From IMG/VR virus record IMGVR_UViG_3300025395_000007: a DNA stretch of 64,000 bases; one strand, 5' to 3'. This document shows, piece by piece, positions 7,206 to 45,800 of this stretch (its first letter is position 1; each line of letters opens with the position of its first letter). The translations under genes were made by a program, and so were the position numbers. Under the pieces are notes generated by a model, which was not told the DNA's origin, did not search any database, and saw nothing but the letters and a program-made list of their open reading frames with translations. This stretch comes from a virus.

Positions 7206-8908
7206 TACTTTTTAAAAAAATTAGATATAAAAATTTATTATCTACGGGAAATCTTTTTACTGAGATTGATTTGAACACTCATAACACTTCATTGATTGTT
7301 GGTGAGAACGGTGCTGGCAAATCAACCATCCTTGACGCTTTGTCTTTTGTAATCTTCGGTAAAGCATTCCGTAAGATTAATAAGGCGCAGCTGATCAATA
7401 CCATAACTCAAAAGAACCTTGTGGTTGAAGTTGAGTTTTCTATTGGTACAAATAACTATAAGATCATTCGTGGAACAAAGCCGAATATATTTGAGGTGTA
7501 TCAAAATGATATTATCCTCAATCAATCTGCAGAAATGAAAGACTATCAAGAAATTCTTGAGAAGCAGATTATGAAAGTTAATCATAAATCTTTCTGTCAG
7601 GTTGTAGTTCTTGGGTCAGCTACCTTCCAATCTTTCATGCAGTTGAACACAGCGCAACGTCGCGAGATTATTGAAGACCTTCTTGATCTTCAAATCTTTA
7701 CAACGATGAATTCTCTTTTGAAAGATAAAGTTCTTATCAATAGTGATTCACTTAACACTTGTTCTAATAATAAGAAAATTGCAGAAGAAAAGATTAAACT
7801 TATTCGTGAACATATGCAAGAGATGCAAAATAATAATGATGCTATTATTGCAGAAAAGAAAGAGCGCATTGAAGAAACTAAATCACAGTTAGAAATTTTA
7901 ACGGCTCAACAAAATAACATTAATGAGGAAGCTAAAGAATTAGCAAGCCAAACTACTAATCTTGAAACGCTTGAAAATAAAATGTCTAAGCTTCAATCTT
8001 TGAAGCATAAAATTGAAGCTAATCTTGCTATCGTAAATAAAGAAGTCGCTTTCTTTAATAGTCATGACAACTGCCCTACTTGTAAACAGGAAATTGATCA
8101 TGATTTTAAATGTGAAGCTATTGATACAAGAAACACTAACATTACTGAAATTCAAGATGGCCTTGATAAACTATCAGCTGAATATGACAAAGTAAACTCT
8201 GAAATAAAAAATATGAATCTTATTAATAATCAGGTTCGTCAAAAAGTAATAAACTATCACGTTATTGATACTAAAATTAATTCATTGAATACCTATGTTA
8301 AACAACTTAACAATGAAATTAATTCAATTCAAAAAACTGTAGAAGAACAGGATAATACAAAGATTGGAGATCTTGAAAAAGAATTCTCTGATATCGAGAA
8401 AACACATAGTGAGCTTTCTGAAGAAAGGCAGCTTCTTAATGCAGCTGGTGTTTTACTAAAAGATGGCGGTATTAAATCTAAGATCATTAAACAGTATATC
8501 CCTGTTATCAATAAACTGATTAACAAATATCTTTCCGCCATGGAGTTTATGTGTCAGTTTGAACTAGATGAAAACTTCAACGAAACTATTAAGTCTCGTT
8601 ATAGGGATGTGTTTAGTTACGAGAGTTTCTCTGAAGGCGAAAAAATGCGTATCGATCTTGCTATCCTGTTTACATGGAGAGCGGTTTCGAAACTTCGTAA
8701 CTCTATCAACACCAACCTTCTTATCATGGATGAGGTATTCGATAGCTCATTGGATTCGAATGGTACAGAAGAATTTTTAAAGATATTAAATAGCTTGACT
8801 TTTGACACAAATACGTTTATAATAAGTCATAAGACTGATCAACTTTTCGATAAATTCGAACGAGTGATTAAGTTTGAAAAGCATAAGAATTTTTCAAGGA
8901 TAGCTTAA
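7202..8908 (+). CDS. gp46: Recombination ATPase (Rad50/SbcC-like)
   Basis: GENGAGKS Walker A, CPTC zinc hook, FSEGEK signature, MDEVFD Walker B. Confidence 0.96.
   Translation: MILFKKIRYKNLLSTGNLFTEIDLNTHNTSLIVGENGAGKSTILDALSFVIFGKAFRKINKAQLINTITQKNLVVEVEFSIGTNNYKIIRGTKPNIFEVYQNDIILNQSAEMKDYQEILEKQIMKVNHKSFCQVVVLGSATFQSFMQLNTAQRREIIEDLLDLQIFTTMNSLLKDKVLINSDSLNTCSNNKKIAEEKIKLIREHMQEMQNNNDAIIAEKKERIEETKSQLEILTAQQNNINEEAKELASQTTNLETLENKMSKLQSLKHKIEANLAIVNKEVAFFNSHDNCPTCKQEIDHDFKCEAIDTRNTNITEIQDGLDKLSAEYDKVNSEIKNMNLINNQVRQKVINYHVIDTKINSLNTYVKQLNNEINSIQKTVEEQDNTKIGDLEKEFSDIEKTHSELSEERQLLNAAGVLLKDGGIKSKIIKQYIPVINKLINKYLSAMEFMCQFELDENFNETIKSRYRDVFSYESFSEGEKMRIDLAILFTWRAVSKLRNSINTNLLIMDEVFDSSLDSNGTEEFLKILNSLTFDTNTFIISHKTDQLFDKFERVIKFEKHKNFSRIA
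8795..8823 (+). promoter_or_regulatory. Sigma70-type promoter inside the 3' end of gp46
   Basis: TTGACT-N17-TATAAT. Confidence 0.6.
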
Positions 8909-9480
8909 TGTTTGAAACTGTTGTAATTGACGATATCGTGGATACTGTAAAACAAAAACATATCCACGATATGTTAATGACTGCTGACTGGAAATTCCTT
9001 ATGGATGTTAGTGGTGTGCAAAATACATATCCATCGCATGGTTTTGCTCATGTTTTAAAATATCCAAATGGATTACTTTCTCCTTTGTATGAGGAAATCA
9101 GCCCTCATATTTTAGATTCTATTTCTAGTGGCAATTATAAAATTAAAGAGAACTATTATAACCGTTCTTTCCTTCAGCTGCCATTAGCAGCAAAATATAT
9201 GAAAGAACACAATGGCATTCATGTGGATCTTCCAAAAGAAATTCCACATGTAGCTTGTGTTTATTATGTAAATAATTCAGACGGTGATACCATTATTTAC
9301 GAGCAAACTATTAACGATACTCCAGGCGGCTCGAATAATGTTCAACTCATTGAACATAAAAGAGTTGAACCAAAGCGTGGTCGTATAGTTATGTTTGATG
9401 GATCTAGGTATCACTGTAGCAGTCAACCAACGATTAACTATCGTTGTATCATTAACTTCGATTTAATTATGGAACAATAA
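8908..9480 (+). CDS. 2OG-Fe(II) oxygenase
   Basis: HVD...YYVNNSDGDT...PKRGRIVMFDG..YH...R double-stranded beta-helix motifs. Confidence 0.85.
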   Translation: MFETVVIDDIVDTVKQKHIHDMLMTADWKFLMDVSGVQNTYPSHGFAHVLKYPNGLLSPLYEEISPHILDSISSGNYKIKENYYNRSFLQLPLAAKYMKEHNGIHVDLPKEIPHVACVYYVNNSDGDTIIYEQTINDTPGGSNNVQLIEHKRVEPKRGRIVMFDGSRYHCSSQPTINYRCIINFDLIMEQ

Positions 9481-10489: not shown

Positions 10490-10684
10490 ATGGACGATAT
10501 TAAAATTAAACAAAGAATGAAAGAGCTTATGATACCCATTGATCAGCAGATTATGATGACTGATGATCCAGGTGAAGTTATGATGTTGGCTTGTGCAATG
10601 CTATCAACTGTAAAGCAAATATTTGATTTGCAACTTGGCGTTGATGGAAGAAATAAAATGTTTAGGAGTATTATGGATGAGTAA
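10490..10684 (+). CDS. Hypothetical protein
   Basis: ORF packed tightly in the operon. Confidence 0.6.
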   Translation: MDDIKIKQRMKELMIPIDQQIMMTDDPGEVMMLACAMLSTVKQIFDLQLGVDGRNKMFRSIMDE

Positions 10685-11096
10685 TTGGTTTGAAGATGTA
10701 AAGGACTTTCACCGCGCATTTGGTCAGCGTATTGGAGATAAGCCAGAATTGGCGCAAGATTTTACTGAGAGAAATCTTAGATGCAGTTTAATGGATGAAG
10801 AATTTAATGAATATATTGAAGCTGAAAATAAACACGATCTTATAAAAGTGGCTGATGCTCTAGCTGACATTATCTACATTGCTCTTGGCACAGCTGTATC
10901 ATATGGCATTCCTCTTGATAAAGTATTCGAAGAAGTTCACCGTAGCAATATGGCGAAGCTCGTTGATGGTAAGGTTCTTCGTCGAGAAGATGGCAAGATT
11001 CAAAAGCCAAAGGGTTGGACTCCACCTGATATTGAATATGTGATAAAAAAGACACATGAAGAAAACACTTTACTTAATCAACAAATTGGTTTATAA
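10677..11096 (+). CDS. All-alpha NTP pyrophosphohydrolase (MazG/HisE-like)
   Basis: EEFNE, DALADIIY and EVHRSNMAK...DGKIQKP motifs. Confidence 0.85.
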   Translation: MSNWFEDVKDFHRAFGQRIGDKPELAQDFTERNLRCSLMDEEFNEYIEAENKHDLIKVADALADIIYIALGTAVSYGIPLDKVFEEVHRSNMAKLVDGKVLRREDGKIQKPKGWTPPDIEYVIKKTHEENTLLNQQIGL

Positions 11097-11097
11097 T
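11069..11097 (+). promoter_or_regulatory. Sigma70-type promoter for the modification cluster
   Basis: TTTACT-N17-TATAAT. Confidence 0.55.
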
Positions 11098-11141: not shown

Positions 11142-12446
11142 ATGGTTAGAACACTTGTTGTAAAAAAGCGCGATGTAGAACATGTCCTTGGTACATTCAT
11201 CACCTGTGCAGATTATGCCGATGAAATCATTCAAGAAGATTGTGATTTGTATGCAGAATCGCTTGATGGAACTATCTCAGAAGAGAATATTATTTTCAAG
11301 TATCGCAAGAATGTTTTCAGTCAGGAAGAAATGGATGCGGCCTATACTGGTTTGAGAGATGCTGCGACTGAATCACAGAACCGTGGACTTGCCGCTGGTC
11401 CTCGTGGTGAACAACTTGGGGCTGAAGGTCGTGGTAATCGCGATTGGGTTAGCCCAGAACAAATTGAAATCCTTGCCTTTCTTGGTAGGCCATTAAATTC
11501 TTTTGATGATGGTACTACAATCGAAACGATTAAGGAAAGTCATAAGAAAGGTTCTAAGGAAGAAACTCGCGGTCAGGTATGGCTTCGTTCTGCAGTATTG
11601 CAGAAGTATGAAGAATACCATGGATGGTTTGATAAGTGGCTTGCTGGTATTCATAACCTTTCGCGTGAAGAACAGATGGCTGAAGCAAAGCATATTGTTG
11701 AAAATTATATTTCAGAAACAAATTATGCACAGTCAGTAATGTCTGGTATTGCTGGATACTTCGATCGTTATCCACGTATTCCATATGGTCGTGCAACTTC
11801 ATATACTGAAAAGAATTATGATAAGTTTGCGCTTGTTTTTCCATATCTTCGCAAACTTAATCAACAATTTAAAGAACTACTTCCTGTACGTTGGGGTGCA
11901 CAAAACGAATGTGCTCAAAAACTCGATCCTCGTTTTCGTATTGATGAAACTGTCTTTACGACATTGACAGTTAATCATAACTGGCGTACAGCTTGTCATA
12001 GAGATGCTGGAGACTTACATGAAGGATTCTCGAATATTTGCGGCATTACTGGCCCTGAAGGTAAAGGTTGGAAGGGCGCTGAGTTCATTCTTCCAGAATT
12101 TGGTATCGCTATTAATCTCCAGCCTGGAGATATGTTGCTCGTCAATAATCATGGTGGTATTCACGGTAATGATGCACTTATTGGAGATGATAATGATCGC
12201 CTTACCTTGGTATCTTATTTCCGCGAAAAGATGCTTGATCTCAAAGCTTGGGATTACGAAAACCTCCGCAAGCAATATGTCGATGAAAGACGAATGAATA
12301 AAGATCATCCACTTCATCGCCATCTTTGGAATGGTGTTTCTGCAAATATGTGGGATGAACAAGAATGGTATGACTATATGAAGAAGCATAATATTGCTGA
12401 CCCATATGGCAAAGAAGCAGCAGCGAGCTTGGATTCATTCTTCTAA
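11142..12446 (+). CDS. Tet/JBP-family 2OG-Fe(II) dioxygenase (putative DNA pyrimidine hydroxylase)
   Basis: FTTLTVNHNWRTACHRDAGD (HxD), IHGN and RLTLVSYFRE motifs typical of TET/JBP enzymes. Confidence 0.8.
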   Translation: MVRTLVVKKRDVEHVLGTFITCADYADEIIQEDCDLYAESLDGTISEENIIFKYRKNVFSQEEMDAAYTGLRDAATESQNRGLAAGPRGEQLGAEGRGNRDWVSPEQIEILAFLGRPLNSFDDGTTIETIKESHKKGSKEETRGQVWLRSAVLQKYEEYHGWFDKWLAGIHNLSREEQMAEAKHIVENYISETNYAQSVMSGIAGYFDRYPRIPYGRATSYTEKNYDKFALVFPYLRKLNQQFKELLPVRWGAQNECAQKLDPRFRIDETVFTTLTVNHNWRTACHRDAGDLHEGFSNICGITGPEGKGWKGAEFILPEFGIAINLQPGDMLLVNNHGGIHGNDALIGDDNDRLTLVSYFREKMLDLKAWDYENLRKQYVDERRMNKDHPLHRHLWNGVSANMWDEQEWYDYMKKHNIADPYGKEAAASLDSFF

Positions 12447-13126
12447 TGTGTGGTGTGCTAGGTATAGCGATTAAAAATTTTACAAAGAAAGACCACGATT
12501 TAGTTCGTGGTCTTTTCATTCAATCTATGATCCGTGGTAAACATGCTAGTGGTGTTTCATATGTCAAAAACGGAATTGTAAATACAGTTAAAGAATCAAT
12601 ACCTGCAGAAGAGTTTATATTAAAACAAAATTTAGATAATTGGAGAAATGAAGATGGAAACCTTTATTGTATTGGTCATATTAGGTATTCTACTTCTGAC
12701 TTGCGTTTTAATCAGCCCTTTGGAACTGATTTACTGGGCATTGTTCACAACGGAGTTATATCCCAAGAACCACCAGAAACTTGGGAAGAGAAATATGGAT
12801 ACAAAACAGAAACTGCAAATGACTCAGAATTGATTTTGAAATGCTGGGAACAACATCAAAATCCTTTGAGCGTTTTTCCTGAAGCAAGCATGGCAGTTTG
12901 CGGTATCAGTTACAATAAAAAATTAACTGCATTTAGAAATGCGGAAAGACCTTTGTATTATTACACTGATGAAAGGTCTAGTGTGTTTGCTTCAACTAAA
13001 GATATTTTAAATCGTTCTGGTTTATCATCTGTAACTAAAACAAAAATGTATGAAGTTATTACAGTTGAAGATTTTAATCTGACACGGCTTCCTATGAATG
13101 ACATTAATGTAGAGGACTTGCAATGA
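12446..13126 (+). CDS. Class II (Ntn) glutamine amidotransferase
   Basis: N-terminal MCG, RG.HASG, GHIRYST, HNG and DSE motifs. Confidence 0.9.
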   Translation: MCGVLGIAIKNFTKKDHDLVRGLFIQSMIRGKHASGVSYVKNGIVNTVKESIPAEEFILKQNLDNWRNEDGNLYCIGHIRYSTSDLRFNQPFGTDLLGIVHNGVISQEPPETWEEKYGYKTETANDSELILKCWEQHQNPLSVFPEASMAVCGISYNKKLTAFRNAERPLYYYTDERSSVFASTKDILNRSGLSSVTKTKMYEVITVEDFNLTRLPMNDINVEDLQ

Positions 13127-14007
13127 ATTACGATCCAAAAGATTATACATGGGGCTACGAAATTGAGTGGGGTGATATTGACAGGCGTACAATTATCCCT
13201 TCGCATTTAGGTAAGTGGGAATTTGCTGAAACAGATATTGTTAATTTGAATGGCGAGTTTCGTGGCCTTGCATGCGATCCATTAGGTGAATCACCTCCAG
13301 TTGGTGGTGAAATTAATACAAAGCCAACTGCAACTTGGCAAGATCAAGTTGAACGTATTATGGAAATTAAAAAGCTCTTTACTGATTTAAAACAATCACC
13401 AACAGCTTCTTGTGTCAATCATGGTCATCTTCATGTCTATGTTCCTGGATTGAAAGATGATATTCCTGCATTGAAGAAGTTAGTTAAGTATATTCGAGAC
13501 AATCAACACATTACAATTGATAGATTATATCAGTACCGTCTTGATCCTCTTATGTCCAGTGCTAAAACTGCCAAGACATATTTGAAGTGGGATGGTGGTC
13601 GTCCAATGCCCGACTATATGTGTAACAACATTATTAGTCTTACACAGGACTTCGAGCATTTTATTAAACTTCATGCGGCTGGTAAAGATGGTGTATCAAT
13701 GGGTCGGCCATTCCGATATGCAATCAATACATATTGCATGAAACATACTGGAACAATTGAGTTCCGTTGTTTGCGTTCTTCAACAGAGCGTAGGGAAATT
13801 GAAGACTCATTTAGGTTTGCGGAAAAGTTTATTGAAGCTGCATTAAATGATGGTCCACCAGTAGAAGATATTCTTAGCGAATATGATTATCAGTTTCCTA
13901 AATTTAATTACGACCATGAAATGTATCTCGGCTGGGAGAAAACAAAATATGATAAGTCAAGAGGCAATAAGCAACGTGAGTTCCTTTCAGTTGAGGCCAA
14001 CGACTAA
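13123..14007 (+). CDS. Amidoligase (COOH-NH2 ligase, glutamine-synthetase-like fold)
   Basis: GYEIE, GGEIN, HLHV and GTIEFR motifs. Confidence 0.8.
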   Translation: MNYDPKDYTWGYEIEWGDIDRRTIIPSHLGKWEFAETDIVNLNGEFRGLACDPLGESPPVGGEINTKPTATWQDQVERIMEIKKLFTDLKQSPTASCVNHGHLHVYVPGLKDDIPALKKLVKYIRDNQHITIDRLYQYRLDPLMSSAKTAKTYLKWDGGRPMPDYMCNNIISLTQDFEHFIKLHAAGKDGVSMGRPFRYAINTYCMKHTGTIEFRCLRSSTERREIEDSFRFAEKFIEAALNDGPPVEDILSEYDYQFPKFNYDHEMYLGWEKTKYDKSRGNKQREFLSVEAND

Positions 14008-14503
14008 AACTGAATTCATTGCTTCTCTTACTGATTTAAAAGAAGATAAGTTTGCCAAAACATTCGTTGCTAAATGCAACATGATGGATGATTGGGATAA
14101 ATGTAGGGGTGTGTGGATCGACGGTAGACTTGCAGGAGCTATCGTCGTTACCATTTCAAAACGTAAACCAATCACTGCTAATCTTCAACTTCTCCATACT
14201 TTCCATGAGTTCAGAGGTAAGGGTGTTGCTCGTAAATTGTGCGAGTGGGCAAAGGATCATGCTATTGAAATGGATGCAGAATACTTTCGTGTTTCTGCGG
14301 AGTTTGATGCGGTTCCATTTTATGAGAAGTGTGGATTTAAATTCGTTTGCAAACAAAAAACAGCCAAGCTCGCCATGTTTAAACTTTCTGACCCAGATAT
14401 TATTGATGAATACATTTGGAAAACGATGAAGAAAAAAGGTAAAGGCGGATGCGTAGAGTGTTACGTTGATTATAAAGGTGTTGACTTTTTTCAAGAAGTA
14501 TAG
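13976..14503 (+). CDS. GNAT acetyltransferase (start uncertain; frame open from 13883)
   Basis: FRGKGVARKL acetyl-CoA motif A and AVPFYEKCGF. Confidence 0.85.
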   Translation: MSSFQLRPTTKTEFIASLTDLKEDKFAKTFVAKCNMMDDWDKCRGVWIDGRLAGAIVVTISKRKPITANLQLLHTFHEFRGKGVARKLCEWAKDHAIEMDAEYFRVSAEFDAVPFYEKCGFKFVCKQKTAKLAMFKLSDPDIIDEYIWKTMKKKGKGGCVECYVDYKGVDFFQEV

Positions 14504-14509
14504 TATAAT
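14481..14509 (+). promoter_or_regulatory. Sigma70-type promoter
   Basis: TTGACT-N17-TATAAT followed by an AGGAG RBS. Confidence 0.8.
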
Positions 14510-14533
14510 ATCTATATAACTTAGGAGATTGTT

Positions 14534-15811
14534 ATGGATTACGATGCAATCGTTTACGGCTGGCGTAATATTGAAAATAAAATGATGTATGTGGGGTTCC
14601 ATAAAACCCAAGAAGAATTTGATGGATATGTCACTTCTTCCGAAAGCGAAGAACTTAGACATGCATGGTCACATGGTCTTTTAAATCGTACAATTCTTTA
14701 TCGTGGAACTGTTTCCGAGTCTATCACTTTTGAGAATTTTATTCTTAAGAGTGTTGATGCTCGCGTCAATCCTATGTTTTATAACCGCTCGAATGGTGGC
14801 GGCGTAGGCTGTCAATCTTTTGATATCATAACAAAAGATATGAAGAAGATTGCAGAAAAGTGGTTAGGTGGTAATGACAATATCAATAAATTAAAGCGTG
14901 AATTTCTCGCTAATAAAAAATTGGTTAAGTCGATTAAGAAAAAGATCGAAGCAGGTCATTATGTTATCTTCGAAGAGAAGATAGAAAACCTTGTCAATCT
15001 TCCACGCAACCAAGTTCGTTTGGTTGATTATGATCCTGATCATCTTCAAGAAATTACAGAGAGCATGCGATATGACCCAAAGGGTGCACGCAAATTAGTT
15101 TCTCCTGTAATTGTTTCTGTAGATGCAGAAGGATATAAACTAATCCTTGATGGCAATCATACCACAACTGCCGCATATAATGCCAAGTGGACAACCCTTC
15201 CTACAATCTACATTAACAGTTCAGACTTCGAGGATAACCAAGCTAACTATAATGATTTTGGATTGTTGATGAACCATCATCCAAAGCGTAAAAAATCTAA
15301 TACGAAAGAAGATTGTAAGAAAGCAATTATGAATCTTCTAGAGGTTTCTAAATTAGAAATCGGTTCATCTCAATTCCGCGAATGTTGTATTATTAATCTT
15401 GAAGAATATTTCAGTAAGCCAACAATTACTGCAAATATTAATTCTGTGGCTACAATTTTAAAAGAGCAACAGGATATTATTAAATACAACTTTAAGAAGT
15501 ATGGTAAATCTGATATTGAACAAATTACTAAAGGTTGCGAATATTTGAATCCAAATAAAGCGATTATTTCTATCACCTCTGATTCCTCATATAATGCAGG
15601 GGTTGGCGCTATTCTTAATAAGATGGGCGGTCTGGATTGTTGGGAAGGAATTATGCTTGTCAATCATAGAAATATGCACGAATACGATCGACGTAATGAA
15701 CATCATTCTAAACTTATGAAAGCACTTGAACGTATTCATCCAAATGCAAAAGTTGAAGTTCAATACCTACCTTCCTTCATTGATATGAAAAATAATGAAC
15801 TCCATCAGTAA
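14534..15811 (+). CDS. GIY-YIG-like N-terminal domain fused to a ParB/Srx-like domain
   Basis: IVYGWRN...MYVGFH...DGY...E...FYN (Seg-like); later NQVR...SPVIV...ILDGNHT (ParB-like). Confidence 0.55.
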   Translation: MDYDAIVYGWRNIENKMMYVGFHKTQEEFDGYVTSSESEELRHAWSHGLLNRTILYRGTVSESITFENFILKSVDARVNPMFYNRSNGGGVGCQSFDIITKDMKKIAEKWLGGNDNINKLKREFLANKKLVKSIKKKIEAGHYVIFEEKIENLVNLPRNQVRLVDYDPDHLQEITESMRYDPKGARKLVSPVIVSVDAEGYKLILDGNHTTTAAYNAKWTTLPTIYINSSDFEDNQANYNDFGLLMNHHPKRKKSNTKEDCKKAIMNLLEVSKLEIGSSQFRECCIINLEEYFSKPTITANINSVATILKEQQDIIKYNFKKYGKSDIEQITKGCEYLNPNKAIISITSDSSYNAGVGAILNKMGGLDCWEGIMLVNHRNMHEYDRRNEHHSKLMKALERIHPNAKVEVQYLPSFIDMKNNELHQ

Positions 15812-16781
15812 ACAACGTAAACAAGATTTCATAAATTGGTATAAGTGGTCGCTGTCCATTAAGGATTGCGACCCCGCCATTTTTATGACCAATTATCTTT
15901 TTGATAGATTTGAGCATAACAAAGAACAAAAACTTTGGATTGCTTGGATCTATGGTACAACGTATTATCTTCCAACAACATGGGTTATATGGAATGAATT
16001 CCCAGACTTCGAACTCGTCGGGCTTGAACGACTCCGCGAATGGAATAATAACAATTACAAACGGCTCCGTTATCAAACTGACACCAAGTGGAACAAAGGT
16101 CATCTTCCAGCCCAGTTCGAGTCGTACAAAAACTGGGTGGGAGATAAAACTCAACGCGAAGCATTTGCGCCCTATCTCATCGGAGAGCCAAGAGAAAACT
16201 TTGACCGACTCTGGCCAGAAATAAACAAGCTCCATAAATTCGGAAGATATTCTTCTTGGTTCTATATGCAAACACTTAAACAGTGCTGCGGTTTATCAAT
16301 TGAACCGAAGAATCTAATGTTGGAAGATCATGACGGTTCGCGTTCACATCGTAATGGTCTTTGTATGGCTCTTGGTCTAGATGAATGGTACGATCAAAAA
16401 CTTAACGCGCAACAGATTAATTATCTCGACGGCGAAGCTTACTACATACTTCAAGAGGTAAAGAAAGAATTTCCCACTACTGATTATTTCGATATGGAAA
16501 CTTGTCTTTGTTCGTTCAAAAAACTATTCCGTAAAACACGTGGACGTTACCTTGGGTATTATATTGATAGACAGGCAGAAGAAATTTCGCAGTGCGCATC
16601 AGATGACTGGAAAGGTATTGACTGGCAACCGCTTTGGGATGCCAGAATTGAAACTTTAGAAAATAAACTGTTGACTAATCGCATAGATAATAGTAGAATG
16701 AGTCTATACCTAGATTCTAACGTGTTGGATGCCACTGGACTTTTCGAAAAGAAAAGTGTTGGTCTTGAGGGGTTTTTTTAA
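15795..16781 (+). CDS. Amino acid:DNA transferase (aG/PT-PPlase family, HhH-glycosylase fold)
   Basis: DCDP, W..WIYGTTY, KFGRYSSWFY and ETCLCSFKK motifs; adjacent to a P-loop kinase. Confidence 0.75.
   Translation: MNSISKQRKQDFINWYKWSLSIKDCDPAIFMTNYLFDRFEHNKEQKLWIAWIYGTTYYLPTTWVIWNEFPDFELVGLERLREWNNNNYKRLRYQTDTKWNKGHLPAQFESYKNWVGDKTQREAFAPYLIGEPRENFDRLWPEINKLHKFGRYSSWFYMQTLKQCCGLSIEPKNLMLEDHDGSRSHRNGLCMALGLDEWYDQKLNAQQINYLDGEAYYILQEVKKEFPTTDYFDMETCLCSFKKLFRKTRGRYLGYYIDRQAEEISQCASDDWKGIDWQPLWDARIETLENKLLTNRIDNSRMSLYLDSNVLDATGLFEKKSVGLEGFF
16671..16699 (+). promoter_or_regulatory. Internal sigma70-type promoter upstream of the kinase
   Basis: TTGACT-N17-TAGAAT. Confidence 0.5.
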
Positions 16782-16901
16782 TGAAAGTTATTGAGATTTG
16801 CAGTGTTCAAAATGAAAACGAATCATAGCAGGTTTAACATAGAGTCAGTGGGACTGCCATCCGTGACTGACAATATATTTATAACATGGGAGATTTTAAA
16901 G

Positions 16902-17438
16902 ATGCGTGTGATAGCGATTGGTGGTGAGCCTGGATCTGGTAAATCCACATTAATGTGGAAGTTGATTAATCATTATCAACCGAAGCCTATGTATGATGCA
17001 TATAAGTTAGTTCCATATCTTCAGAAGGATAACATTTATATCCTTGGTAAGTATGAAGAAGGTGAAGTGTTTTCTGGCACTGATAGGATGAGCATGGCTG
17101 TCCAGCCAGAAGCTATTAAATTTTTAAGCACATTAAATGATAGCTCAGTTGTTCTTTACGAAGGCGATCGTTTGTTTACATCTTCATTCCTTGAAGATTG
17201 CGCTGAAAAATATACTCTTGAGATTATCTATCTTTCAACCTTAAAGGAAGTTAGAACCACGCGATACGCAGAGCGTGGTAGCAATCAAAATGAAACTTGG
17301 TTGCGTGGTCGTGAGAGTAAAATTGGTAACATTCTAACTAATTTCGATTTGATGTTTTTAACAGAGAAGTTTTTAAACAACAATCTAGATGAACAGAAAG
17401 TAGTATTTGATAAAATTGTGGAGAAGATAAATGAATAA
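16902..17438 (+). CDS. P-loop kinase, putative 5-hydroxymethyluracil DNA kinase
   Basis: IGGEPGSGKST, GTDRMS and YEGDRL motifs; GGGAG RBS; neighbourhood. Confidence 0.7.
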   Translation: MRVIAIGGEPGSGKSTLMWKLINHYQPKPMYDAYKLVPYLQKDNIYILGKYEEGEVFSGTDRMSMAVQPEAIKFLSTLNDSSVVLYEGDRLFTSSFLEDCAEKYTLEIIYLSTLKEVRTTRYAERGSNQNETWLRGRESKIGNILTNFDLMFLTEKFLNNNLDEQKVVFDKIVEKINE

Positions 17439-17874
17439 TAATGGAGGTTATGTAGTAGGTGCTATTGGTTCTACCAATTTTGGGCATTATCCTACTGGAT
17501 CAAATGGAGGAGTTGATCCTAATTTTGATGTAATTTACGATGAATCTGGAGGAGTTATCGGCACAGCTGGTAAATTAATCAGTACACAAAATAAAAATAT
17601 TTCGTATAAATATGGCGAAGATACCTATATTCAAGAAATTTCTGACTATATAGATAAGACATATGGTCAACATTACTCAAAAAATCAATTTCAAGCAACA
17701 GAGTTTATTATTGACTCTGGACATGGCACAGGATTTTGTATTGGTAATGTTTTGAAATATGCTCAGCGTTACGGTAGAAAAGGCACCCGTGATGAATGGC
17801 GAAAAGACCTAATGAAAGTGATTCACTACGCAATGATGCAATTACATGTCCATGATAATGAAGGAAGTAAATAA
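17431..17874 (+). CDS. DUF3310-like protein
   Basis: HY...GFCIGNVLKYAQRYGRKG...DLMKVIHY. Confidence 0.65.
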   Translation: MNNNGGYVVGAIGSTNFGHYPTGSNGGVDPNFDVIYDESGGVIGTAGKLISTQNKNISYKYGEDTYIQEISDYIDKTYGQHYSKNQFQATEFIIDSGHGTGFCIGNVLKYAQRYGRKGTRDEWRKDLMKVIHYAMMQLHVHDNEGSK

Positions 17875-18728
17875 TGGAAATTAATATTAATATTGAAGAT
17901 CTAAGAAAGCGTAAGCTTTTTGTTGCTACACCAATGTATGGTGGTATGTGTGCAGGTATGTTTGCACGGTCAGTTGCTGACCTCTCTGCAATTTGTACAC
18001 AATATGGAATTCCGCTTCAGTTTTATTTCTTGTTCAACGAGTCTTTGATTACTCGCGCAAGAAATTACTGCGTTGATGAATTCATTCGGTCAGGCGCTGA
18101 TCATCTTATGTTCATTGACTCTGATATTGGATTCAATCCTCAGGATGTTATTGCATTGATGGCTCTTCAAGCTCAAGATGAAAAGTATGATATCATCGGT
18201 GGTCCATATCCTAAGAAGTGCATCAGCTGGGAAAAGATTAAATTGGCAGTTGATAAGGGTATCGCTGACGAAGATCCAAATGTTCTCGAGAAGTTCGTTG
18301 GTGATTATGTCTTCAATCCAAAGGGTGGCCAGCAGTCTATCTCTATCGCTGATCCATGCGAAGTTCTTGAAATTGGTACTGGCTTCATGATGATCTCGAA
18401 GCAAGCTATGTCTAAGTTCTGTGATTTCTATCCTCAGTATATGTACAAGCCTGATCACGTTCGTACTGAACACTTCGATGGCACTCGTAAGATCATGATG
18501 GCTTTCCAAGCTGAAGTCGATCCTAAGTCTGAGCGTTATCTTTCAGAAGATTATTGGTTCTGTCAGAAGGCTCAGGAAGCTGGTCTTAAGACTTGGTTCT
18601 GCCCATGGATGAAGATGCAACATGTTGGCACTTATATCTTTGGTGGTTCGCTCGCCGACCTCGCATCGATCGGTGCATCTGCTACTGCTGACCCAAGTGC
18701 GCTTGGTGGTAAAGCAAAGAAACTTTGA
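17874..18728 (+). CDS. GT-A fold glycosyltransferase-like protein
   Basis: VATPMYGG, SLITRARN, FIDSD (DxD), GTGFMMI and SEDYWFC motifs. Confidence 0.7.
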   Translation: MEININIEDLRKRKLFVATPMYGGMCAGMFARSVADLSAICTQYGIPLQFYFLFNESLITRARNYCVDEFIRSGADHLMFIDSDIGFNPQDVIALMALQAQDEKYDIIGGPYPKKCISWEKIKLAVDKGIADEDPNVLEKFVGDYVFNPKGGQQSISIADPCEVLEIGTGFMMISKQAMSKFCDFYPQYMYKPDHVRTEHFDGTRKIMMAFQAEVDPKSERYLSEDYWFCQKAQEAGLKTWFCPWMKMQHVGTYIFGGSLADLASIGASATADPSALGGKAKKL

Positions 18729-18744
18729 AACAAGGAGATATATT

Positions 18745-19398
18745 ATGAAGATTGATACAAATACAATTAGCGTTCTAAAAAACTTTGCCAAGATTAACCC
18801 TTCCATTATTGTACAGGAAGGGAACGTCTTGAAGACTATGTCAACAAACAAGACAATTTTGGCAAAGGCAAATGTCAATACAAATTTCGGTAAGCGATTT
18901 GCGATTTATAATCTAGATCGTTTTCTTTCCACCATTAGTTTGTTCAATAATCCTGAACTAAACTTCGGTGAGAAGTCTGTTGAAATTTCAGATGAAACTA
19001 AGAAGATTAATTATACCTATGCTGATGAATCTACCATCGCAAAGGCTCCAGAAAAAGAAATTAATCTTCCATCTGTTGACGTAATCTTTAAGCTTACTAA
19101 TGATAACTTGAAGGATGTTGAAAAGGCAGCTGGTGTTCTTCAGCTTCCAGAAATTCTTGTTTCTGGCGATGGAGTAAATGTATATCTACAGGCTGCTGAT
19201 TCAAAGAATCCTTCAGGTGATGTTTATTCGGTTGCTATTGGTACAACTGATAAGACATTTAAGGCTATCTTTAAGCATGAAAATATTCGTATCATCCCAG
19301 GTGATTATGAAGTAAGTATTTCATCTAAGGGCATCTCTAACTTCAAGGGTGCTGAAGCTGAATACTGGATTGCAGTTGAGCAGTCATCAACTTTCTAA
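18745..19398 (+). CDS. gp45: Sliding clamp
   Basis: T..VLKNFAKINPSI, FAIYNL..FL and YWIAVE motifs; 45-44-62-regA order. Confidence 0.92.
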   Translation: MKIDTNTISVLKNFAKINPSIIVQEGNVLKTMSTNKTILAKANVNTNFGKRFAIYNLDRFLSTISLFNNPELNFGEKSVEISDETKKINYTYADESTIAKAPEKEINLPSVDVIFKLTNDNLKDVEKAAGVLQLPEILVSGDGVNVYLQAADSKNPSGDVYSVAIGTTDKTFKAIFKHENIRIIPGDYEVSISSKGISNFKGAEAEYWIAVEQSSTF

Positions 19399-34271: not shown

Positions 34272-35261
34272 TCATGACGTTCTGTAGACAAATTTAGCCT
34301 TTGGAAATTCACGTGGAACATCCTTCAAACTAGTCAGCAAAGCTTCCCATTGATGGATTCTGCTATTCCAATTATAGAACACATCAGCATAAGCCTTTTG
34401 TACATTTATCTTTTTAAAGTATTCTTCGTCTGAAAGAGTGTTCAACTCTTCAATTGAATTTTTAAGAACGGTGTAAAAGATATTTGCATGATCTGCTAAA
34501 TCTTCGCTATACTGGTACATGTGAGTCCAATTAGCAGAAGTTTCTGGAAGAGCGCCATAGTTAGGATGAACGCAAACAACACCTGCACTCATTGCTTCCA
34601 TAAGAGAGATACAGCTGGTTTCTTCCCAGATATTAGGATAAGAATAGATATGAGCCTTCTTTAAAACTTCATGGATTTCTTCGTTTGATACAGCGCCATG
34701 ATAATTAATACCAGGAGTGTTGTTACAAGCGTCAAACAACTTTTGGAAAGGTTCATCTCTCTGATCCCATCCATAAACTTTGAACGAAGAATAAACATCA
34801 AGTTCAATGTTATCGTATGTTTCTTTTAGCTTCTGGAAAACTGGAACAAGAATTTGCAAACCACGGTGTGGAGTTGTATGATAAACCAACTTGATAACAT
34901 CACGCTTTTTATCTTCAACAGTGAAGTTAATCGGTTCGATGCAATTATGAAGAACAATACACTTATTCCATGGAATTTGATACCTATCGATATAGGCTTT
35001 CATTTGATAATGAGAAGAGAATACCAACTTATGGAACTTTTCCCATCCGCGATTTCTTAGGTGTTCTGATTCTGGGTCACCTGCTAAATCTTGTAACCAA
35101 AGGATACGTACATGATTTTCAGAAAGTTCTTCATGAACACGTGATACAAATATTTGAAAATTATCAAACAGTGCAGGGTCTAAACGCTTTTCAAGCGCAT
35201 ATTTCATTAATTCTGTGCCACCTTTGGCGTTACCAGAAAGTTTATCTTTTGCGAAAGGCAT
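34272..35261 (-). CDS. GT-B (GT4-like) glycosyltransferase
   Basis: GGTE, PHRGL and EETSCISLMEAMSAG motifs. Confidence 0.88.
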   Translation of the reverse strand: MPFAKDKLSGNAKGGTELMKYALEKRLDPALFDNFQIFVSRVHEELSENHVRILWLQDLAGDPESEHLRNRGWEKFHKLVFSSHYQMKAYIDRYQIPWNKCIVLHNCIEPINFTVEDKKRDVIKLVYHTTPHRGLQILVPVFQKLKETYDNIELDVYSSFKVYGWDQRDEPFQKLFDACNNTPGINYHGAVSNEEIHEVLKKAHIYSYPNIWEETSCISLMEAMSAGVVCVHPNYGALPETSANWTHMYQYSEDLADHANIFYTVLKNSIEELNTLSDEEYFKKINVQKAYADVFYNWNSRIHQWEALLTSLKDVPREFPKAKFVYRTS

Positions 35262-35270
35262 TATATGCTC

Positions 35271-36278
35271 CTATTTCAACCAAATTCTATTTTCATTATA
35301 CCAGTTAGAAACCTTTTCGATTCTCTGTTCAATAGGCATCGAAGGTTGCCATCCTAAACCACGTAGATAATCGCCTGAAATAGCGTAACTAAAATCATGT
35401 CCTGGACGTTCAACATTAGGGTCAACTAATTGATAATCAAGTTCAACTTTTAAACTTAAAGCTAACATCCCTGCAATTTGAAGGTTATTCCATTCAATAT
35501 CAGATGCGATGTTAAACTTCGGGCAGGATCCTCCCATACTATTAATAGCAATTTCTTTTAAATTCAAAATGAATAAAAGAGCAGAGGCTACATCCTTAGC
35601 ATGGAGATAACAACGGCTACCAATCTTGTTGGTTTTGCTATCATAGTGGATAATTAATTGTTCTTTATTGACAATTTTCTTGAGACACATAGGAATGTAT
35701 TTTTCGGGATTCTGACGTTCGCCGTAGACATTCATTGTATGCGTAATGTATATAGGCAGTTTGTAAGTGTTCTGATATGCTACGCACATAGCCTCACCAG
35801 CCGCTTTAGAAGCCGAGTAAGGGTTGGTAGGATTAAATCTATCATATTCAGAGAAACTATATCCAGGAACTGCTGGGCCAAATACTTCATCCGTAGAGAA
35901 GTATACAAAACGATTGAGGTTATCTAAAGTTCTGGCATATTCCAATAGATTGACAGTGGCAACTACGTTGTTCTCAACAAATTCCATGGGAAACTTGATA
36001 GAGCGTGTGACATGAGATGCAGCTGCTACATGTAGGATAATATCAATTGGTCCGATAGTATCGGCGATTTGCGGGCTAATAGCTGCCCGAAGATCATGAT
36101 GAACAACTCTAACACGTGACTTGTCGGCCCGACCGCCGACAACCTCTTCAATTCTGTTGAGGTTACCAGAGAAATCGAGCCGATCCAAGCTGACGATATT
36201 ATAGTCTGTATTATCAAGAAAATACTCAATAATATGGTGGCCGATAAATCCCGCGCCACCCGTCAATAATACATTCAT
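35271..36278 (-). CDS. NDP-sugar dehydratase (dTDP-glucose 4,6-dehydratase-like)
   Basis: TGGAGFIG, AASHV, STDEVFG, YSASK and RPGHD motifs. Confidence 0.92.
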   Translation of the reverse strand: MNVLLTGGAGFIGHHIIEYFLDNTDYNIVSLDRLDFSGNLNRIEEVVGGRADKSRVRVVHHDLRAAISPQIADTIGPIDIILHVAAASHVTRSIKFPMEFVENNVVATVNLLEYARTLDNLNRFVYFSTDEVFGPAVPGYSFSEYDRFNPTNPYSASKAAGEAMCVAYQNTYKLPIYITHTMNVYGERQNPEKYIPMCLKKIVNKEQLIIHYDSKTNKIGSRCYLHAKDVASALLFILNLKEIAINSMGGSCPKFNIASDIEWNNLQIAGMLALSLKVELDYQLVDPNVERPGHDFSYAISGDYLRGLGWQPSMPIEQRIEKVSNWYNENRIWLK

Positions 36279-40190: not shown

Positions 40191-40994
40191 TTATTCCTTA
40201 CACTGTTTTTTCTTATCGTCCGCCAGTGTTTTTAAATCAACTGGAAGAAGTGGGTTCTTAACTGTTTTTGAATCAGGAACAGGAAAAGTTGAACCTGTTA
40301 CTTTTTCAACATCAGCGACCGTTACTTGATACTTTGTAAAATCTGAATCAAGTCCCGATGTATTACTCATTAAGAAAGCATATGACTTTTTAGAAGTATC
40401 ATCAATCACAATTTTAAATAGAGCGTCTGGAATAACTACCTTATCAGCACCAATAGTTTTAGAGGCTGATGTATAGATATTACCTGCATATTCAGTAAAT
40501 GGATGCTTAGTTGAATACACCCATGCACGTGCAGCTGATTCTAAATTCTTCCAAGTGCCACGATTAACAGCAGGAAGCTGTGGGCTCATGTTAGACATAA
40601 GGAATGACTCATGTTCAACCTGCGGATCCCAAGACATATCAGCGTCATTAGCTAGGTGGCCTTGGTCATAGCCAGAAGCCGCATAATCTTTAGGATCAGA
40701 ACGCTGCGTTACTGGAAGAGATTGGTCTGCAGCGAAAGAATTAGTGCGAGCGACGCAACCAATTGCGTGATCAGGAGTAAGAGTCCAAGCGACCCAATTT
40801 GGGATTTTTGCAACAGCATCATGCTCAAGAATGTAAGCAGTACGACAGATAACAGGGTGATTTGCAACAGTAGAAGGTAATCCATATGGTACTTGCACTT
40901 TACATGTGTCAACTGGTTTTGGTGGTTGCTGATCAGCAGCGTATGCTGATGTAGCAATCAATAAACTAAAGAGAAAACCCTTTAAATGTTTCAT
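40191..40994 (-). CDS. Exported DNA/RNA non-specific endonuclease (NucA/EndA-type)
   Basis: Signal peptide ending AYA; DQGH; NMSPQ...NRG.W..LE. Confidence 0.9.
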   Translation of the reverse strand: MKHLKGFLFSLLIATSAYAADQQPPKPVDTCKVQVPYGLPSTVANHPVICRTAYILEHDAVAKIPNWVAWTLTPDHAIGCVARTNSFAADQSLPVTQRSDPKDYAASGYDQGHLANDADMSWDPQVEHESFLMSNMSPQLPAVNRGTWKNLESAARAWVYSTKHPFTEYAGNIYTSASKTIGADKVVIPDALFKIVIDDTSKKSYAFLMSNTSGLDSDFTKYQVTVADVEKVTGSTFPVPDSKTVKNPLLPVDLKTLADDKKKQCKE

Positions 40995-45134: not shown

Positions 45135-45800
45135 TTACTGTCCAATATCCAGTGTATCTTTCAATGAAGGAAACACTTTTGTTATTTCGTACCATGCATC
45201 AGTAGCTACCCCCCGATGCTCTTTTTGAGTGCCAATAGACATACGTAGCTGACAATAGTGAATCCAACTTCGAAGAGAACCAGCCATATAAAGACGAGAG
45301 ACAGTAAGACCTTCTGGCAAAACTGCACGAGCCTGTTCTTTTGCAATTCCATTACGAATTGCCCATTCATATTGTTTTTGTGCATATTCAATTACTATCT
45401 TTTGACGCTCATCCCAACCGTGTTTGAGCTCTGGATCGTCTTCTACTTCGATGGAGTTCTGTCTGTTTTTTGTATCTTGCAAACGGGCTTCACGAGTGAC
45501 GAATCCGAGGTCTTGGGTCGGATCCGCATATCTCTGGCTAAATTCTTGGAAAGAGAAGCTACGGTGGCGTAAAATCTGTCTAGCGATATCACGTGTGGTA
45601 TTAATCTCCATAACAACATGGACCATTTCGAATGGCGACCAATGTTTATTTTGCGCTAGATATTTCAATAACTTAGTTGATGTTAGTGTATTAGACTGAT
45701 TAGATGGATTACTTACACGAGCAACGTAAGCAATGAAATCATCAATATTCATATCTTCATTTATTGATTGCGTAACTGCAACAACTTTAGCATTATTCAT
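45135..45800 (-). CDS. thyX: Flavin-dependent thymidylate synthase
   Basis: HWSPFE, RHRSFSFQEFSQRY and TQKEH motifs. Confidence 0.95.
   Translation of the reverse strand: MNNAKVVAVTQSINEDMNIDDFIAYVARVSNPSNQSNTLTSTKLLKYLAQNKHWSPFEMVHVVMEINTTRDIARQILRHRSFSFQEFSQRYADPTQDLGFVTREARLQDTKNRQNSIEVEDDPELKHGWDERQKIVIEYAQKQYEWAIRNGIAKEQARAVLPEGLTVSRLYMAGSLRSWIHYCQLRMSIGTQKEHRGVATDAWYEITKVFPSLKDTLDIGQ

Follow-up and report, generated by a model that had tools for sequence, protein, structure and literature searches.

A probable post-replicative thymidine hypermodification cassette on a T4-like phage backbone

Thymidine hypermodifications protect phage DNA against restriction enzymes and further defences that rely on nucleases, and they are a source of DNA-labelling enzymes. 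In phage PaMx11, whose pathway leads to 5-acetylaminomethyl-dU, 5-hydroxymethyluracil (5hmU) is made before replication by a ThyA-type hydroxymethylase and is processed by the kinase gp49, the amino-acid:DNA transferase (AADT) gp46, the FAD lyase gp47, and the acetyltransferase gp48. The alpha-glutamylthymidine of SP10, 5-NeOmdU of ViI, and 5-NedU of M6 also arise from a 5hmU-phosphate intermediate by an AADT-type reaction that transfers an amino acid to DNA; the tailoring in these phages is carried out by pyridoxal phosphate-dependent decarboxylases or radical-SAM isomerases or is missing altogether, and none of them employs an amidotransferase/amidoligase pair (PMC8989533). In the synthesis of base J by trypanosome JBP and in phage systems that combine Tet with TET-associated glycosyltransferases (TAGTs), the first step is hydroxylation of thymine in DNA after replication. 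O'Toole et al. 2026 (PNAS, PMC13229309) reported that phage enzymes of clades C1/C2 are T-dioxygenases that make 5hmU on DNA, and that the ParB-dependent ones are linked to glutamine amidotransferases (GATases), PF18751 kinases, and PF18724 AADTs; no downstream product was determined in that work. A survey by Lee et al. 2021 (NAR, PMC8989533, Fig. 2 sequences 22–25), which gave no product and did not analyze the present lineage, contains metavirome contigs in which Tet_JBP, 5-HMUDK, and aGPT-Pplase2 domains occur together with amidoligase and glutaminotransferase domains. Here, we describe a locus of this type at positions 11142–17438 (+ strand) of a 64,000-nt stretch of DNA, referred to below as the window, from the IMG/VR record IMGVR_UViG_3300025395_000007. 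The locus most likely serves the post-replicative hypermodification of thymidine in a T4-like phage. Cassettes of this kind have been published before, and novelty is confined to the nucleoside and the details.

The locus comprises seven tightly packed, co-directional genes, with overlaps of 1 nt, 4 nt, and 59 nt between the first four. A first-pass annotation, which was prepared from the sequence and its open reading frames (ORFs), had described six genes, the first four of them overlapping, that encode a Tet/JBP oxygenase, an amidotransferase, an amidoligase, a GNAT, an AADT, and a kinase, preceded by an NTP pyrophosphatase gene. All six families were recovered on the + strand where the annotation had placed them, five by Pfam matches above the cut-off and the amidoligase by fold, and the preceding gene is a MazG-like gene (10623–11096, PF01503). 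The gene count had to be corrected to seven, as an ORF for a 425-aa protein (14534–15811) had been overlooked. Through this additional, ParB-like gene, the locus connects to the published class of ParB-associated T-dioxygenases. In line with neighbourhoods of the ParB-associated clade C1 5mYOX enzymes, the locus combines a Tet_JBP gene that has no adjacent C5-methyltransferase gene with a ParB-fold gene and with GATase (PF13522/PF13537), PF18751, and PF18724 genes, and its Tet protein has a C-terminal extension similar to the ParB-dependent subclass, a likeness of gene content and domain layout. The same families are found in the contigs of Lee et al. (PMC8989533), for which formation of 5hmU in DNA was proposed, with Tet likewise replacing the dUMP hydroxymethylase as its source; in the window, the cassette occupies a swap-prone site between the MazG-like and clamp genes. 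The locus shares with the PaMx11 pathway a kinase homologue, the catalytic-cysteine motif of the AADT, and a GNAT for what would be the final tailoring step. However, the place of the FAD lyase is taken by a GATase and a ligase of the glutamine synthetase (GS) fold, so the product should differ from that of PaMx11. Sister phages with an orthologous Tet carry TAGTs in place of the cassette, whereas the gene content of the window points to a phosphate/amino-acid route rather than glycosylation. A literature search found no characterized base for this gene combination, as the first-pass annotation had supposed, and no paper that names the product of the cassette or gives the amidotransferase/ligase pair a role.

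The first gene (11142–12446, + strand) encodes a 434-aa Tet/JBP Fe(II)/2-oxoglutarate (2OG) dioxygenase of the 5mYOX group (PF12851, E 8e-19, with 67.8 bits against a Tet_JBP cut-off of 34.9; phrog_24024, E 3e-133). The protein had no match among PDB sequences. It is composed of a conserved N-terminal domain of ∼200 residues, a catalytic domain (residues 203–362), and a C-terminal extension of ∼70 residues that follows the Tet_JBP domain, while the tested ParB-independent enzymes comprise ∼290–300 residues (PMC13229309). In 18 homologues with 41–95% identity, the His-x-Asp and His residues of the iron triad and the 2OG-binding Arg (H286, D288, H341, and R353) are invariant, as are many residues of the N-terminal domain.

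The kinase and the AADT are encoded at the 3′ end of the cassette. The P-loop 5hmU-DNA kinase (∼178 aa; 16902–17438, + strand) contains a Walker A motif, matches PF18751 (Ploopntkinase3) with an E value of 2e-12 and 47.4 bits (cut-off 27), and is 36% identical over 95 residues (E 1e-6) to PaMx11 gp49, a proven 5hmdU DNA kinase. Its start is most likely at 16902, because a ribosome-binding site is located there and homologues begin at the equivalent methionine; the ORF, which is open from 16791, probably over-extends the protein. The likely start leaves a spacer of ∼120 nt (16782–16901) after the AADT gene, and in the related locus L001 the two genes abut. The AADT (formerly aGPT-Pplase; 328 aa; 15795–16781, + strand) had been assigned to this family by the first-pass annotation, and the assignment holds, with an E value of 1e-26 for PF18724 and a score of 94.2 bits against a cut-off of 26.2. 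With the clade-2 transferase of ViI-like phages it shares ∼28% identity (E 1e-24 to 1e-26). Its invariant Cys239 lies in a Glu-Thr-x-Leu-Cys motif that is also present in PaMx11 gp46 and is aligned there with Cys247, which acts as the covalent nucleophile in the solved gp46 structure; the overall hhalign match between the AADT family and gp46 is weak (E 0.16), and the comparison uses the local cysteine motif alone. Neither the AADT protein nor the AADT profile matched PDB sequences. The GNAT-family N-acetyltransferase (∼184 aa; 13949–14503, + strand) matches PF13673 (E 2e-11; 44.8 bits against 23.6) and PF00583 (E 3e-10; 40.9 bits against 20.7) and is weakly similar to the acetyltransferase gp48 of PaMx11 (E 7e-4). 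Its ORF is open from 13883, and a ribosome-binding site and an ATG make 13949 the most likely start.

Between Tet and GNAT lie the genes of the amidotransferase and the amidoligase. The former (226 aa; 12446–13126, + strand) is a stand-alone class-II (N-terminal nucleophile, Ntn) glutamine amidotransferase domain that matches PF13522 and PF13537 (GATase_6/7; 38.3 bits against a cut-off of 27). It begins with Met-Cys, and 23 homologues all retain the presumed catalytic Cys2, Arg80 and Asp126-Ser-Glu with the Arg and Asp for glutamine binding, and His101-Asn102-Gly103 with the Asn-Gly oxyanion hole; in a profile alignment these residues correspond to those of the PurF glutaminase domain (E 4e-4). 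The latter gene (13123–14007, + strand) encodes a 294-aa protein that had no Pfam or PHROG match at default thresholds (PF12224, 14.8 bits against a cut-off of 22). Its homologues and fusions exceed this cut-off with 42.6 and 35.8 bits, and the AlphaFold2 (AF2) model (pLDDT 91) has the GS/glutamate-cysteine ligase (GCL) fold of ATP-dependent carboxylate-amine ligases. In VIA-align, the best matches were the YbdK-like 1tt4 (Z 10.2 over 223 residues), a plant GCL (10.0), GS (9.7), and Dop/PafA (9.0). The top 19 rows, with Z scores of 10.2–5.7, all belonged to the GS/GCL/YbdK/GmaS/PafA-Dop fold, 17 of them with Z ≥ 8, and the next ones scored ∼5. The top Foldseek matches were GS, YbdK, or GmaS only. 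The amidoligase call of the first-pass annotation is thus correct at the level of the fold. Of the acidic, His, and Arg residues typical of the ATP/metal site, Glu13 and Glu15 are nearly invariant, and His102, His104, Glu213, and Arg215 are invariant in this family, for which 689 homologues (415 representatives) were collected and whose Atlas clusters are named amidoligase; its profile had no match among PDB sequences. Fusions of the ligase to 5hmdU DNA kinases, GNAT, and TAGT occur in independent samples. The GATase and ligase genes overlap by 4 nt at stop and start, the two co-occur strictly (every complete cassette that has either has both), and one fusion joins them with the Ntn cysteine at the N-terminus.

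The fifth gene (14534–15811, + strand) encodes the 425-aa GIY-YIG/ParB-like protein, for which an AF2 model (pLDDT 85.6), Foldseek, and VIA-align indicated three domains: a GIY-YIG-like domain (residues ∼4–86), a ParB/sulfiredoxin fold of the nucleotide-binding type with a helical region (∼129–311), and an alpha/beta domain of no assigned family (∼320–425). Foldseek matches were to the CDP-bound ParB structure 6sdk (E 1.4e-6), Myxococcus xanthus ParB, Noc, and KorB, and VIA-align matches to pNOB8 ParB-N (Z 9.3) and, over 79 residues (4–86), to I-TevI (Z 6.2). The nearest structures are ParBs of the M. xanthus and Caulobacter crescentus type. Unlike the clade C1 ParBs, the protein bears an additional GIY-YIG-like domain at its N-terminus, and its C-terminal domain differs from theirs. 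In the GIY-YIG-like domain, Tyr8, Tyr19, Glu67, and Asn84 are invariant and no arginine is; a 483-aa homologue matches PF01541 at an E value of 3e-4, which is under the cut-off. The ParB CTP-binding motif Gly-Glu-Arg-Arg-x-Arg-Ala is replaced by an invariant Asp-Gly-Asn-His-Thr, with the upstream Gln160 and Arg162 retained. In the published ParBs, by contrast, the CTP-motif residues are largely conserved (PMC13229309). We lean towards the 425-aa protein being a Tet-linked accessory, by analogy to the published 5mYOX-associated ParBs. Sigma-70-like promoter matches in the region are in total no more numerous than in shuffled sequence. The best of the region (11/12; 14481–14509, + strand) spans the GNAT stop codon and is followed by a strong ribosome-binding site and the 425-aa gene, and another (10/12; 11069–11097, + strand) lies directly 5′ of Tet, where its position alone is suggestive.

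The phage would make ordinary dTMP through the flavin-dependent thymidylate synthase ThyX (45135–45800, − strand; PF02511, E 7e-41; ThyX motif), which the first-pass annotation had noted. As its route further implied, no C5-methyltransferase, dUMP hydroxymethylase, or other ThyA-family gene was detected among the window ORFs that were scanned with Pfam (cassette, flanks, and the larger ORFs of the 64 kb). Five related partial genomes yielded no PF00145 C5-methyltransferase or ThyA-family gene, and three complete genomes of cultured relatives with a homologous Tet contained no PF00145 gene. Among the related loci, which are denoted by L-numbers, L001–L080 carry Tet, and L091 and L092 are ThyA-type clusters. 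In these two clusters, the set of GATase, AADT, ligase (with or without GNAT), and kinase stands beside ThyA-family genes in the absence of Tet. This indicates that the tailoring module acts on 5hmU and that Tet replaces a pre-replicative source of 5hmU. The genes in question (L091 5371–9097 and 11136–12245, L092 1474–7669) include a GATase, an AADT, and fused GNAT-ligase-kinase or TAGT-ligase proteins, and the L091 cluster also contains a dUTPase-like gene, NT5C, and a T4 EndoIV-like nuclease gene; they appear to represent the same tailoring set operating on pre-replicative 5hmdU.

The families, their catalytic residues, and the ThyA-type clusters support the in-DNA route that had been proposed in the first-pass annotation, from T through 5hmU and phosphorylated 5hmU to a tailored adduct. 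Each step is assigned here from family membership and context, and homologues elsewhere are proven for the conversion of T to 5hmU, the phosphorylation of 5hmU, and the transfer of an amino acid. In the pathway that we propose, ThyX would supply normal dTMP so that replication uses T, and Tet would hydroxylate some thymines within the DNA polymer, giving 5hmU, possibly aided by the ParB-fold protein as in the published ParB-dependent T-dioxygenases. 5hmU would then be phosphorylated by the P-loop kinase, after which Cys239 of the AADT would attack C6 and a nitrogen (or oxygen) nucleophile, for example an amino acid, would displace the phosphate. How the ligase, amidotransferase, and GNAT act, and in which order, is a matter of guesswork. 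The leading guess is that the Ntn amidotransferase provides glutamine-derived ammonia, with which the GS-fold ligase converts the free carboxylate of the amino acid on the DNA to an amide, and that the GNAT acetylates a free amine. The resulting side chain would be bulky and for the most part uncharged and would shield phage DNA from host nucleases.

Several points weigh against this reading. The evidence gathered here is wholly computational. The search for a C5-methyltransferase or hydroxymethylase reaches only 64 kb of this genome. The identity of the AADT nucleophile is a guess that is not deducible from sequence. The lone GATase-ligase fusion lies on a single 2.7-kb contig and may be a frameshift artefact. 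In the ThyA-type clusters the GATase gene is beside the AADT gene and not beside the ligase gene, abutting it in L091 and separated from it only by a phosphatase gene in L092. The 425-aa protein lacks the arginine of the CTP-binding motif, and its gene is missing from several cassettes whose Tet is 75–80% identical, in a pattern that is scattered on the Tet tree; this loss and the patchy presence make a Tet-activator role of the protein uncertain.

Were Tet to oxidize 5-methylcytosine (5mC), the cassette would hypermodify cytosine instead of thymine. Phage Tet enzymes of other clades do act on 5mC (PMC13229309), and the T-dioxygenases are reported to oxidize 5mC in vitro as well. However, the scanned window ORFs, the five partial relatives, and the three complete genomes with a homologous Tet offer no C5-methyltransferase that would provide 5mC, the kinase and AADT families are characterized on 5hmU only, and an identical tailoring module pairs with ThyA-family genes, so we consider a cytosine substrate highly improbable. 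The wiring of the final steps is less constrained. Ammonia from the GATase could instead be passed to the AADT to give 5-aminomethyl-dU, the amine of which would be acylated by the ligase, for example with the gamma-carboxyl of glutamate, before the GNAT caps the alpha-amine. This arrangement would account for the proximity of the GATase and AADT genes in L091 and L092. It is also favoured by the solved relatives of the ligase fold (GS, GCL, GmaS, and PafA), which mostly activate a glutamate carboxylate. Nevertheless, translational coupling links the GATase to the ligase, not to the AADT, here and in most other cassettes of the Tet type, a GATase-ligase fusion exists, and the characterized AADTs take amino acids or diamines, with none known to use ammonia (PMC8989533, PMC13458397); we regard this wiring as unlikely. 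Still less probable is a gamma-glutamyl cycle, an option that was listed in the first-pass annotation, in which the ligase would gamma-glutamylate a free diamine or the DNA adduct, the Ntn enzyme would later remove the group, and the GNAT would acetylate the unmasked amine. In the Pfam note on PF12224, the ligase family is paired with a GATase-like thiol peptidase or a gamma-glutamyl cyclotransferase. EgtA/EgtC and PuuA/PuuD provide analogues, and the GATase retains the residues for the glutamyl alpha-amino and alpha-carboxylate groups, which suits a hydrolase as well as an ammonia donor. Such a cycle would require a further step in between, the minimal cassette (L078: Tet, GATase, ligase, AADT, and kinase) encodes no enzyme for it, and the order of the fusion, with the GATase at the N-terminus, is that of true amidotransferases. 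Amidation of the carboxylate is placed first among the three wirings because of the translational coupling, the strict co-occurrence, and the one GATase-ligase fusion in canonical order; delivery of ammonia to the AADT ranks second and the gamma-glutamyl cycle third.

The 425-aa gene could also be a selfish, dispensable insertion of the homing-endonuclease type, in which case the pathway would consist of the six enzymes alone. The GIY-YIG-like N-terminal domain and the position of the best promoter match of the region at this gene would fit such an origin, as would the distribution of the gene: it is absent from L010, L020, L034, and L078 despite near-identical partner genes, it is reduced to a 151-aa N-terminal domain in L045 and L046, its presence is scattered over the Tet tree, and in the closest relative, L001 (Tet 95% identical), its slot is occupied by an unrelated 493-aa ORF. 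Many close Tet orthologues also have no ParB-like gene. On the other hand, the gene occupies the same slot between GNAT and AADT in four of the four contexts examined, down to 33% identity and including a second backbone, whereas free homing genes wander. All three domains are kept in 119 full-length homologues, conservation does not extend to the catalytic arginine of GIY-YIG nucleases, the gene is absent from the ThyA-type clusters (L091 and L092), which need no Tet, and phage T-dioxygenases have published ParB-fold partners (PMC13229309). On balance, we find the insertion doubtful, while granting it an appreciable chance, and favour the Tet-linked accessory. The 493-aa ORF of L001 (9154–10635) had no Pfam match and no similarity to the 425-aa family; it contains an HNH-like motif, a reading that refers to a short motif only.

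The C-terminal tails of two cassette proteins suggest a possible link to replication. Tet (codons at 12426–12446) and AADT (16761–16781; the tail reads Gly-Leu-Glu-x-Phe-Phe) are the only two of the 193 window ORFs that end with Leu-Asp/Glu-x-Phe-Phe. Of the 84 Tet homologues nearly all retain the tail, as do most of the 38 AADT homologues, distant ones included. The same cassette is present in L084, where the family-B DNA polymerase (L084 1–357) terminates in the motif seen on Tet. In T4-family phages, the C-terminal tail of the polymerase is a clamp-binding peptide. The polymerase-like tail on Tet and AADT therefore suggests that the modification enzymes may ride on gp45, and the gp45-type sliding clamp encoded at 18622–19398 (+ strand; PF09116, E 3e-14) may, by analogy, be the docking partner of the shared tails. 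If so, hypermodification would take place directly behind the replication fork and not by free diffusion, and the tail would offer a way for a post-replicative pathway to keep pace with replication. We tentatively propose that the cassette makes an undescribed thymine nucleoside, in which an amino-acid or aminomethyl adduct carries an extra amide and an N-acetyl group, with Tet, AADT, and perhaps GNAT docked on gp45 through the polymerase-type tail; this combined picture is possible rather than probable.

The cassette type is abundant in environmental T4-like phages, as judged from the 689 ligase homologues and from 136 Tet relatives in IMG/VR, all of which are placed alike after a MazG-like gene. 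The order Tet-GATase-ligase-GNAT-(ParB-like)-AADT-kinase is kept in 17 complete related loci and in four independently reached contigs, and the cassette occurs on at least two T4-like backbones. The recurring gene order indicates that the arrangement is not due to chance. In addition to the 17 complete loci with the GATase-ligase-AADT-kinase set, 21 complete loci have no AADT or kinase (15 with TAGTs of PF20691 and 6 with two ORFs of no assigned family), and in five further loci another type of AADT is accompanied by methyltransferases or an inositol-phosphate synthase. An orthologous Tet (70–80% identity) precedes PF20691 glycosyltransferases or other AADT/kinase sets elsewhere, and on the Tet tree, a quick IQ-TREE tree, the cassette types are intermixed. 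Free swapping 3′ of a conserved Tet is the pattern expected if this enzyme provides a generic hydroxymethyl handle. The locus offers a compact, intact seven-gene set for reconstitution, and the natural variants, which differ in the presence of GNAT and of the ParB-like gene and in being ThyA- or Tet-based, are ready-made dropouts.

In L001–L080, the hot-spot of swapping lies between Tet and DUF3310 (for example, L015 2868–4432, L036 11299–13216, L040 3938–6825, and L054 2274–4722). The alternatives that occupy this site are PF20691 glycosyltransferases, RrnaAD-like, FkbM, and N6/N4 methyltransferases with a divergent AADT, and a myo-inositol-1-phosphate synthase with a HAD-like gene, a pair that is also present in Caulobacter phage Cr30. 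A GT1 gene and a low-molecular-weight phosphatase gene are sometimes located inside the GATase-ligase set.

By its gene content, the window is part of an uncultured T4-like myovirus, with genes for gp23, UvsY, UvsW, gp55, and gp47/46. Its major capsid protein is closest to those of Stenotrophomonas phage DLP_6, Sinorhizobium phiM12-type phages, and pelagimyophages (62–67% identity). In a blastn search against GenBank phages, the cassette DNA gave no more than one match, of 130 bp, which indicates that the cassette has no close cultured relative. The cassette is preceded, in this order, by gp47/46, a 2OG oxygenase, a peptide deformylase, a DenV-like gene, and the gene for a MazG-like (PRA-PH) nucleotide pyrophosphohydrolase (10623–11096, + strand; PF01503, E 1e-21; phrog_671, E 5e-44). 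The true start of the latter is probably near 10677, and it is found upstream of Tet in 67 related loci; we treat it as a backbone gene that forms the context of the cassette rather than as a proven member of the pathway. On the 3′ side, the cassette is followed by DUF3310 (17431–17874), a GT-A-like protein (phrog_1574, with a DxD-type motif; 17874–18728), the gp45 clamp, gp44/62, and RegA. DUF3310 and the GT-A-like protein were considered as cassette members and rejected, as both flank every cassette variant; the latter is also present in 62 phage records, including DLP_6, phiM12-type phages, and Ochrobactrum phage OC, where it is annotated as a 'putative glycosyltransferase'. It could glycosylate DNA or the host surface.

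Three further regions of the window contain genes that are of note. A second, small 2OG-Fe(II) oxygenase (weak PF13640 match) is encoded at 8908–9480 between gp46 and the peptide deformylase and is found in few relatives. Genes for a GT1 glycosyltransferase and a GDP-mannose-4,6-dehydratase-like epimerase/dehydratase adjoin at 34272–36278 (− strand); candidate targets of their products are DNA, the virion, and the host envelope. Beside the ribonucleotide reductase genes, a PF01223 non-specific DNA/RNA endonuclease is encoded at 40191–40994 (− strand; E 1.5e-43), which may degrade host DNA while the modified phage DNA is spared.

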